DNA of 64,000 bases from an uncultured Candidatus Saccharibacteria bacterium (GCA_964446965.1 CAYUQD010000001.1:21586-85585); one strand, 5' to 3'. Positions 24,591-49,275 are shown, counted from the stretch's first letter. Notes: a model not told the origin generated them from the sequence alone. Numbers and translations: made by a program.

Positions 24591-24890
24591 ATGAAAAAAA
24601 TATTATTTTTTACATTTTTGATTTTTATACTTTCACATCACAATGCGTACGCATGTAGTGTAGTATATGAGCCCAACCATCCTGTTACTGAAGTATCTTC
24701 GGTAATTGTAAAGACAAGTTCAGCTACTATATACACAACATTTGATGAGCAGAAGTATATAAAAATTGCAGAGCACAGAGAGGATAGTTGCGGTCCATAT
24801 CGAACATATCTACGAAAAGATATAGTATTTGGAGGTATTGCGGTTGTAGTACTGGGTACCTTTCTCATTTTTAAGAAGAAGAGGGATTGA
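24591..24890 (+). CDS. hypothetical small protein with signal peptide and C-terminal TM anchor
   Basis: Hydrophobic N- and C-termini. Confidence 0.35.
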   Translation: MKKILFFTFLIFILSHHNAYACSVVYEPNHPVTEVSSVIVKTSSATIYTTFDEQKYIKIAEHREDSCGPYRTYLRKDIVFGGIAVVVLGTFLIFKKKRD

Positions 24891-47893: not shown

Positions 47894-47925
47894 AAAAAGC
47901 CCTTACATATGTGTAAGGGCTTTAA
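47894..47925. terminator. bidirectional terminator (aaagcccttaca-tatg-tgtaagggcttt)
   Basis: Perfect palindrome between converging genes. Confidence 0.55.
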
Positions 47926-47933
47926 TTGTGTTG

Positions 47934-48284
47934 TCAGTCAATTTTCAAAGGAACAATCCGAATAACATTGTGGTCATTCTGTTGGGCTTCGTTCATACAT
48001 TGATCATAATCTTCACTGGCTTTTATTACCTTATGATAATAAAAGGTTTTAGACCCTTCTCCCTCTATGTATTTGGGACAACTTGTCACCACAACGGTTA
48101 CAATTTTTTCCGTAACGGCCAATTGTTTATTGAGCAGATCTGTTTGCTCAATGTACGTGTCCCATTTGGGAGAGCGCAGGGGATTGTGCTTTGTTGGGCC
48201 CGTTTTTGTAGCATCAAAGAATAGTTCTTGGGCTAGTGTGTTGATGTTCTGAAAAAGATCATTTTTTGTCATCGTTTCTGCCAT
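47934..48284 (-). CDS. hypothetical protein (116 aa)
   Basis: Near-consensus minus-strand promoter TTGACA-16-TATAAT (plus-strand coordinates 48312-48339), ~20 nt leader with no Shine-Dalgarno. Confidence 0.4.
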   Translation of the reverse strand: MAETMTKNDLFQNINTLAQELFFDATKTGPTKHNPLRSPKWDTYIEQTDLLNKQLAVTEKIVTVVVTSCPKYIEGEGSKTFYYHKVIKASEDYDQCMNEAQQNDHNVIRIVPLKID

Positions 48285-48594
48285 GAGTATACGTTTTTTA
48301 TGGTTTTGATTATTATACGTACTCCTTTGATATTGTCAAATTATGGGATGTAATATGTACGTGTTTAGCTCGTCTATACAGTGTAGATAGATAGTTTCTC
48401 TATTTACACTTCATTCTTTCCCAAGGGCATTGAACACAACACATTGAGGGTGACGTATCAGATACTTCGTATCCATACTCACAACAGGACTATATCCTCT
48501 CAAACCGGTGTGCTCAATAATATGTAATCTTACCCAGAGTATCTTTATACATCTGGCACCAGCGAGCTTTTCTTCTTTCCGGTATATCTTCTTT

Positions 48595-48745
48595 ACATTC
48601 TCTTCTGATATACCATTTCTACCCCCGATTGCACGCGTACTATTACCCTTGCCCTTATTATTTCCGTTTCTCTTTGTTCTTCTTTTGTTCTTTCCATTTC
48701 TTACACCCTGTTCCTTACCTCACAACCCAATACCCCAATCGCCAA
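48595..48745 (+). other. G-depleted polypyrimidine tract (non-coding)
   Basis: Only about 6 G in ~127 nt (48637-48763), C/T-rich; ends in the terminator ccccc...ggggg + T-run at 48745-48782. Confidence 0.5.
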
Positions 48746-48782
48746 ACCCCCTCACTCACAAAGTAGGGGGCTTTTTCTTTTT
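48745..48782 (+). terminator. intrinsic terminator (ccccc-tcactcacaaagta-ggggg + T-run)
   Basis: 5-bp G/C stem and T-run, followed immediately by a TATAAT at 48787-48792. Confidence 0.45.
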
Positions 48783-48801
48783 GGGGTATAATTGCATCAG
48801 T

Positions 48802-49275
48802 ATGGAACAATTATCCGGTGCAACCAAAAAGGCAGACGAGTACGCACTGCGTATACTTAATGGAGAAAACATCGACCAAGTACTTGATGGCGCAGATGCA
48901 TTTCGAGCTGAAGTAGAGAAGCGCATCGCTCAATATAATGAGAAAAAAAATGTACAACGAATAGCTGAAGAAAATGAAGGATTACCACAAACTGACCTAC
49001 ACGTCGAGCAGCGAATCGCATCAGACGCAGAAAAAATAAAAGAATTGGAAAATCAGCTATCCAAAGAATCTGAAGAAACAACATATGTACTGGGACAGCA
49101 AGTAGAATATATGGGTTCGAAGCATAAAATAATAGATATTATTGACCATCCATTCCAGAAACAGCAGACAGGTGAGATAGTAAAGGTGTATCATCTAGAA
49201 AATGAAGTGGGTACACCCATTCAAACAGGTCAAGTACGCAAATATGTTTTAGCCAACGAGCTCAAACCTTTGTAA
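48802..49275 (+). CDS. hypothetical coiled-coil protein (157 aa)
   Basis: ATG 9 nt after a TATAAT; the N-terminal 98 residues of ORF 48508..49275 are a translation of the polypyrimidine tract and are rejected. Confidence 0.45.
   Translation: MEQLSGATKKADEYALRILNGENIDQVLDGADAFRAEVEKRIAQYNEKKNVQRIAEENEGLPQTDLHVEQRIASDAEKIKELENQLSKESEETTYVLGQQVEYMGSKHKIIDIIDHPFQKQQTGEIVKVYHLENEVGTPIQTGQVRKYVLANELKPL

Follow-up and report, generated by a model that had tools for sequence, protein, structure and literature searches.

An intergenic interval of an uncultured Candidatus Saccharibacteria bacterium very probably contains, to judge from its sequence and that of its relatives, the gene for a structured RNA of ~400-420 nt that belongs to one subclade of the Saccharibacteria (TM7). 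In the 64,000-nt stretch of DNA that was analysed (the window), the conserved unit occupies ~48361/48381-48782 on the + strand, the two alternative starts corresponding to two readings of a 5′ signature described below, and a conspicuous pyrimidine tract forms its 3′ tail. A preliminary description of the window had proposed a + strand RNA of ~400 nt ending at a terminator. Its outline was essentially right, from near 48350-48360 to an intrinsic terminator, but the tract makes up no more than the 3′ tail of the unit, and both the conservation and a covarying, pseudoknotted 5′ fold of 235 nt had been missed.

The stretch from 48285 to 48801 (517 nt) is gene-free, as had been claimed, and of all the gaps in the window that separate ORFs of 100 aa or more it is the widest. 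The ORFs that cross the pyrimidine tract are low-complexity read-throughs only, and a Pfam search of these ORFs gave zero matches. Between 48637 and 48763 the + strand holds 8 G, 46 C, 48 T and 25 A. Both the G depletion and the pyrimidine excess noticed earlier are real, although the count of G is 8 and not about 6. When the 64-kb window was scanned for compositional skew in segments of 127 nt, the lowest G count was 7 (at 48638; next lowest, 10) and the highest pyrimidine count was 100/127 (48590-48716; next highest, 84), with binomial odds of P(G≤7) = 1e-7 and P(Y≥100) = 2e-12. Across 200 block shuffles, the pyrimidine maximum was 89 and the G minimum was 8. The pyrimidine excess at 48590 is thus unique within the window, but the G depletion is not unique in size, as a comparable depletion lies at 24867. 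That tract, which is depleted of C (7 C per 127 nt), consists of a 99-aa coding ORF, a terminator and the promoter of the next gene, and was set aside as unrelated.

Related loci were gathered via ScpA homologues of 65-86% identity and by one pattern scan of metagenomes, in which 1 of 5 matches was real; a pattern scan of viral contigs gave 29 chance matches and no real one. Four Candidatus Saccharibacteria MAGs encode proteins with 76-82% identity to the ScpA of the window, whose gene lies 480 nt downstream. With a profile made from the initial homologues, exactly one full-length copy per locus was found in 12 distinct loci (the window, L003, L004, L005, L006, L011, L012, L014, L016, L018, L020 and L021; nhmmer E-values 1e-42 to 1e-113), and homologues scored 101-128 bits with a covariance model. 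L006 is cut at its 5′ end, so counts for the 5′ signature refer to 11 sequences. Logan assemblies contain two near-identical copies of the locus. The check for conservation in related genomes, suggested in the preliminary description, thus found the whole unit kept in 12 Saccharibacteria loci, and in 12/12 its position is constant, between aspS and scpA-scpB-mraY-ftsW-murG, whatever its immediate neighbours.

Identity between the window and its relatives was 37-48% at third-codon positions of scpA, 68-83% in the 5′ core of the unit and 57-83% in the tail, the last figure being inflated by low complexity. Since the third-codon identity is far lower than that of core or tail, both parts are constrained. 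In three more distant loci (L022, L023 and L024; 65-70% ScpA identity), no copy was found within 10 kb by nhmmer or by the covariance model with filters off, and the element is for this reason regarded as clade-restricted. At 4950-5000 of L022, before scpA, lies a short stretch (GTCAAC..AACGGCC..CTCTTTTTATACGGTATACT) that resembles the 3′ end of the element minus the terminator hairpin, which suggests, from sequence likeness, a secondary loss or a replacement by a minus-strand gene of 91 aa. One further contig, P0070 (JGI 3300071358), encodes a ScpA of 65% identity and has a gene-free gap of 451 nt between aspS and scpA; the range of the element may accordingly exceed the 12 loci.

The 5′ part of the unit is a folded core of ~235 nt with eight helices and a pseudoknot, obtained with RNAalifold on the 12 sequences followed by inspection (Table 1). 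On the MAFFT alignment A3, 91.6% of cells were paired and 28 of 55 pairs showed double changes; 0/500 shuffles reached any of the measures used, and sliding the pairing register by 1-3 columns left no more than 45% of cells paired and no covariation score above 0.085, as against 0.294. On a second alignment made via covariance model R1 (A5), 95.3% of cells were paired and 19/33 pairs had double changes, and the three-way junction was also borne out. Compensatory pairs in the core exceeded both shuffled and register-shifted controls, as expected of a structured RNA. Folded as a single sequence, the core of the window reached -64.3 kcal/mol (z = -5.65).

Table 1. Features of the conserved unit and of its immediate flanks, in window coordinates
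Feature	Position	Strand	Sequence and support
Promoter of the divergent 116-aa gene (47934-48284, -)	48312-48339	-	perfect TTGACA-16-TATAAT; outside the RNA
Bipartite promoter-like signature	48349-48375	+	TGTAAT (48349-48354), 16 nt, CGTCT (48371-48375); both blocks invariant
P1 hairpin	48381-48409 (48381-48391 / 48399-48409)	+	conserved loop UAGUUUC; 6/11 pairs compensatory; 87.5% of cells paired
P2 hairpin	48412-48436	+	consensus GUUCAU / AUGAAC; 87% paired across homologues; 0 compensatory changes
Three-way junction, closing helix	48445-48502 (48445-48448 / 48499-48502)	+	UGAG/CUCA; 1/4 pairs compensatory
P3 (three-way junction)	48450-48457 / 48475-48482	+	7/8 pairs compensatory
P3b (three-way junction)	48461-48465 / 48469-48473	+	3/5 pairs compensatory
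P4 (three-way junction)	48486-48489 / 48495-48498	+	3/4 pairs compensatory
P5, encloses P5b/c	48507-48510 / 48557-48560	+	GGUG/CACC; U-A to C-G in 3 sequences
P5b/c hairpin, stacked with P5	48534-48542 / 48547-48556	+	6/9 pairs compensatory; 100% paired
Pseudoknot (H-type)	48512-48515 / 48564-48567	+	GCUC/GAGC; 3/4 pairs compensatory
P7 hairpin	48581-48614 (48581-48588 / 48607-48614)	+	GGUAUAUC / GAUAUACC; in 12/12 homologues, loops 7-21 nt
Pyrimidine tail	48615-48743	+	G-depleted, unstructured; GUUCUU at 48677, 48688 and 48711, plus ACAACCCAAUAC and CCAAUCGCCAA
Intrinsic terminator	48744-48782	+	hairpin (stem 48744-48752 / 48765-48773) and U-run (48772-48782)
-10-like element and start codon of the next gene	48787-48804	+	TATAAT (48787-48792), ATG (48802); outside the RNA

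The pseudoknot occurs in the variants GUUC/GAAC, GUCC/GGAC and GUUG/CAAC, and as GCUUC/GAAGC in L016 and L021, where a one-base insertion in one strand is matched by one in the other. In P7, the base pair at the foot changes from G-C to U-A in L018 and the top pair from C-G to A-U in L021, with a wobble in L005. P2 is weaker in the window copy, which carries A48413; the near-identical Logan contig L001 has G at the corresponding position 2612, by which the G-C pair is restored. Of the five differences between the window and L001, none falls in the tail; all are confined to the core and the promoter spacer.

Several other pairings were considered. The single-sequence MFE structure pairs GAGC with the 5′ end (GCGAGC), but this pairing showed no covariation, in contrast to that with the internal pseudoknot strand. 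A helix P6 (ACCGG/CCGGU) had no covariation and several breaks and was superseded by P7, which uses the same GGUAUA. The closing of the tail by CGAUUG/CAAUCG is invariant where found, is missing from the L003/L004/L005/L021 subgroup and is regarded as unproven. A long-range pair between P2 and the tail (GAACA/UUGUUC), proposed by RNAalifold, has one compensatory change and is broken in two sequences; it is a possible alternative conformation of the modelled fold.

On its 3′ side the conserved unit is closed by an intrinsic terminator, whose hairpin has a CCCCC / GGGGG core and a 12-nt loop and is followed by TTTTTCTTTTT to 48782; the ending of five C, five G and a T-run given in the preliminary description is this hairpin. 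It was missed by a simple terminator scan because its loop is longer than 8 nt. All 12 homologues close with a G+C-rich hairpin and a U-run; across the lineages the hairpins have three unrelated sequences, each with its U-run, so that termination and not a particular sequence looks selected. The fold itself barely tells the strands apart, with 26 G-U pairs against 19 A-C mismatches, and the minus strand of the core folds well too (z = -4.9). As the G-U excess is slight, the assignment of the + strand rests on the terminators and on the promoter-like signature.

Between P7 and the terminator hairpin, the homologues carry a tail of 110-160 nt in which, in 12/12, G makes up 4-8%, C 28-35% and pyrimidines 68-76% (G is 23% window-wide). 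Past P7 the sequence drifts and the composition stays. The tail of the window is predicted to be unfolded (MFE -2.7 kcal/mol over 131 nt, z = 0.11), and it is because they are kept free of G that the last 110-160 nt are unable to fold. Short motifs recur in the 12 tails more often than in dinucleotide shuffles, in counts drawn from related and hence non-independent sequences: GUUCUUU was seen 13 times, in 11/12 tails (shuffle mean 0.4), UUCUUU 28 times (4.8), CCAAU 15 times (3.8) and UUCUUUU 10 times, again in excess of shuffles. The few G residues of the tail recur in the same contexts, and two conserved single-copy blocks, ACAAUCCAAUA and CCAAUCGCCAA, stand directly 5′ of the terminator. Indels between closely related pairs of tails are mostly not multiples of three and stops fall in various frames; the tail is therefore non-coding.

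At the 5′ end, TGTAAT and CGTCT are invariant and their spacer is exactly 16 nt in 11/11 full-length homologues, whereas the sequence of spacer and flanks varies. A second exact TGTAAT-N16-CGTCT was found neither in the window nor in any fetched locus. A spacer of fixed length without sequence conservation is a hallmark of promoters, and transcription probably starts from this signature, as predicted from its sequence. TGTAAT could possibly be an unusual -10 element, with a predicted start near 48361; as a sigma-70 -10 element it is poor. Alternatively, the two blocks could form an ECF-like -35/-10 pair with CGTC as the -10 element, and the predicted start would then lie near 48381, at the base of P1. 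Promoters of ECF sigma factors typically combine AAC in the -35 element with CGT(C/A) as the -10 element, the two being 14-17 bp apart (PMC5758882). Both the -10 element and the spacer of such promoters are present in 11/11 homologues, with CGTCT 16 nt past TGTAAT, but the AAC of the -35 element is replaced by AAT in 11/11. The gene of an ECF sigma factor usually has the promoter type that the factor recognises in front of it; no sigma-factor gene was found among the 20 window ORFs scanned for sigma domains. The weak promoter TTGATA-18-TAATAT suggested earlier for this region does exist as a match, but the conserved element there is TGTAAT, and the proposed -35 element is not conserved. A second, internal promoter at GGTATAT was set aside in favour of hairpin P7.

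Both flanks of the RNA are hypervariable (47934-48284 on the minus strand and 48802-49275 on the + strand in the window, and their equivalents in L003-L005 and L011-L021). On the upstream side there are either no ORFs or small, unrelated ones of 87-134 aa on the minus strand; downstream lies scpA directly, a 157-aa ORF (window), a Fic-domain gene of Fic/RhuM type (L016, with a near-identical start in L011) or a convergent gene (L005, L014 and L018). A Pfam search of the window ORFs in these slots gave no match. The site of the RNA gene may be a hot spot for insertions, as those of tRNA and tmRNA genes are. In most loci the -35 element of the divergent gene (GTCAA on the + strand) is found immediately 5′ of TGTAAT; L020 and L021, which have no divergent gene, lack it. 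A GGTATAMT element stands 9-10 nt before the ATG of scpA and of the 157-aa gene of the window, with no Shine-Dalgarno sequence and no recognisable -35 element (window, 48783-48804; L003, 3950-3976; upstream of scpA in L004, L005, L006, L021 and L022); so short a distance to the ATG, with no Shine-Dalgarno sequence, implies that mRNAs of this clade are nearly leaderless. The Fic-type gene of L011 and L016 has TAAAAT 6 nt before its start codon. Further upstream in the window, between the convergent genes of 187 aa and 116 aa, lies a perfect palindromic hairpin of 12 bp (47896-47923) that has an A-run on one side and a T-run on the other and resembles a bidirectional terminator.

Comparison with known RNAs was made by searching the window and 11 related loci against Rfam 15. 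No match was obtained at gathering score (tmRNA, RNase P, SRP, 6S, OLE, GOLLD, ROOL, raiA and riboswitches included), and at E ≤ 10 with permissive filters the searches returned noise of 10-28 bits, inconsistent across homologues. A match to MicA was dismissed as such noise: it lies outside the element and scored 16.6 bits, where the gathering score is 41. An ARAGORN scan of the window for tRNA and tmRNA found 0 genes. The idea of a tRNA split by a group I intron (taken from PMC13011429) was likewise dropped, there being no tRNA-like 5′ or 3′ half and no T-loop in the terminal hairpin. No prior description of this RNA was found in the literature. With OLE, GOLLD, ROOL and the raiA motif it shares length, restriction to a clade, a covarying multi-helix fold and highly conserved unpaired nucleotides, but it matches none of them in Rfam 15 under either setting. 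These RNAs had no known function when they were discovered by comparative genomics; we know of no G-depleted tail of 110-160 nt in any of them.

On balance, we lean towards a stand-alone non-coding RNA in which the folded core is joined to a single-stranded pyrimidine platform for protein or, alternatively, for base pairing. An independent + strand gene would be transcribed from the TGTAAT-N16-CGTCT signature to the hairpin and U-run, and the core (P1, P2, the three-way junction, P5/P5b with the pseudoknot, and P7) would provide a stable scaffold or a module for recognition. The tail, with its repeats of GUUCUUU/UUCUUU and CCAAU, would offer a multivalent single-stranded platform to a trans-acting RNA-binding protein specific for single strands, which it would bind and perhaps titrate. 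That the tail in particular works as a protein platform is put forward more tentatively. The main general argument in favour of a ribonucleoprotein is that a long, naked pyrimidine tail is expected to be sensitive to nucleases unless covered by protein. OB-fold proteins (Csp, S1 and the N-terminal domain of Rho) widely prefer pyrimidine-rich single strands, and the candidate partners would be members of this group that favour pyrimidine-rich RNA, namely a cold-shock-domain protein (Csp), ribosomal protein S1 or Rho. The tail motifs resemble the preferences of CspB and offer a lead by analogy, the motifs being defined for the B. subtilis protein on DNA: GTCTTTG/T and TTCTTTT are preferred, and the Y-box (CCAAT/ATTGG) is bound too, as ATTGG (PMC1904285). 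No Csp gene was seen among the window ORFs examined, the 64 kb being a small part of the genome.

Precedents for such an arrangement exist in CrcZ, an RNA of ~400 nt whose A-rich motifs sequester Hfq/Crc, and in CsrB/RsmZ, whose GGA motifs sequester CsrA. Like these, the present RNA is predicted to stand alone, to be several hundred nt long, to have its own promoter and intrinsic terminator, and to expose multiple short single-stranded motifs. Unlike them, it has pyrimidine-rich motifs (GUUCUUU and CCAAU) in place of GGA or A-rich ones, gathered in one long unfolded tail and not in hairpin loops, and an additional pseudoknotted core of 235 nt; neither CrcZ nor CsrB/RsmZ matches it in Rfam by sequence or structure. 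It is a candidate new RNA family, of a known kind (a stand-alone bacterial non-coding RNA, possibly protein-titrating), whose architecture and sequence are not known ones.

The main rival to the platform reading is a trans-acting, base-pairing RNA, which we consider unlikely. Seeds in the tail (UUGUUCUUU, ACAAUCCAAUA and CCAAUCGCCAA) would pair with purine-rich sites in mRNAs, and the RNA might belong to an ECF-like regulon as its non-coding arm, the role that MicA, RybB and MicL have in the sigma-E regulon. Its tail is predicted to be single-stranded, the short, highly conserved single-copy blocks just 5′ of the terminator would suit seeds as well as protein sites, and, as with these sRNAs, a conserved signature of alternative-sigma type (CGTC as -10 element, 16-nt spacer) precedes a terminator-ended RNA. 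Unlike their promoters, however, the signature has TGTAAT as its -35 element, without an AAC core. MicA, RybB and MicL are 80-300 nt long, depend on Hfq and act by base pairing, and a pseudoknotted core of 235 nt far exceeds what a base-pairing sRNA needs. Complements of the three tail motifs occurred at shuffle frequency in the 64-kb window (~6% of a genome), and repeated motifs with a composition kept over 110-160 nt fit multivalent binding better than a seed.

Less probable still, and in our estimate improbable, is a cis-acting leader, attenuator or insulator of scpAB-mraY-ftsW-murG, with the core as sensor and the tail and hairpin providing Rho loading and intrinsic termination. In 9/12 loci a gene on the same strand begins ~30 nt past the terminator, and the tail has the composition that defines a rut site, being C-rich (28-35%), G-poor (4-8%) and unstructured over more than the required 70-80 nt. 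Rut sites, however, are not conserved in sequence and have no strong intrinsic terminator behind them, whereas the tail has conserved, enriched motifs that would be superfluous for Rho loading. L005, L014 and L018 have a convergent gene next to the element, unrelated genes intervene in the window, L011 and L016, and scpA retains its own GGTATAMT -10 element where no RNA is adjacent (L005, L022 and L023). For a riboswitch or attenuator, moreover, the downstream gene family is not constant and no anti-terminator pairing is available; an anti-terminator is impossible because a tail with 4-8% G offers no G-rich segment for the C-rich 5′ arm of the hairpin.

The preliminary description had also raised a GA-rich RNA from the minus strand, with GGA triplets in the pattern of a protein sponge; such a GGA sponge, of CsrA type, we now hold to be very improbable. 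The minus strand does fold well, as noted above, and carries 5-9 GGA triplets per ~400 nt in each homologue (1-5 on the + strand), but these are few for an RNA of CsrB/RsmZ type and lie outside hairpin loops. No conserved promoter or terminator was found on the minus strand; in every homologue it is the + strand that carries the U-runs and the signature with its fixed spacer, and that strand also has a slight excess of G-U pairs over A-C mismatches. A decayed gene remnant, or a neutral spacer of chance composition, fits the lack of annotation and the low-complexity translation but is scarcely credible given base-pair covariation that includes the pseudoknot, identity far above that of scpA third-codon positions, a G-poor and pyrimidine-rich tail in 12/12, indels mostly not in multiples of three, and no protein similarity as judged by Pfam.

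Saccharibacteria are ultra-small episymbionts whose genomes do not exceed ~1 megabase and have intergenic regions that are very short. The genome of TM7x is 94% coding (PMC10768705). For so compact a genome, it is a notable investment to maintain, by purifying selection, a conserved non-coding gene of 400 nt. There are few large bacterial RNAs that combine a complex, covarying fold with the lack of an assigned function, and such RNAs have repeatedly opened up new biochemistry; we know of no described class in which a pseudoknotted core is fused to a composition-constrained, G-free tail of repeated motifs. It is conceivable, if rather doubtful, that this RNA represents a hitherto unrecognised, Saccharibacteria-specific class of large ribonucleoprotein RNA, in which a core for catalysis, ligand binding or assembly would be combined with a G-free pyrimidine arm recruiting or sequestering a central single-strand RNA-binding factor (Csp, S1 or Rho), under the control of an ECF-like sigma factor; if so, it would act as a post-transcriptional switch of global reach in ultra-small episymbionts that have very few protein regulators. 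To our knowledge, almost nothing is known of RNA-based regulation in the Candidate Phyla Radiation, and the element described here offers a testable entry point to it, with a covariance model and a promoter motif ready for genome searches.
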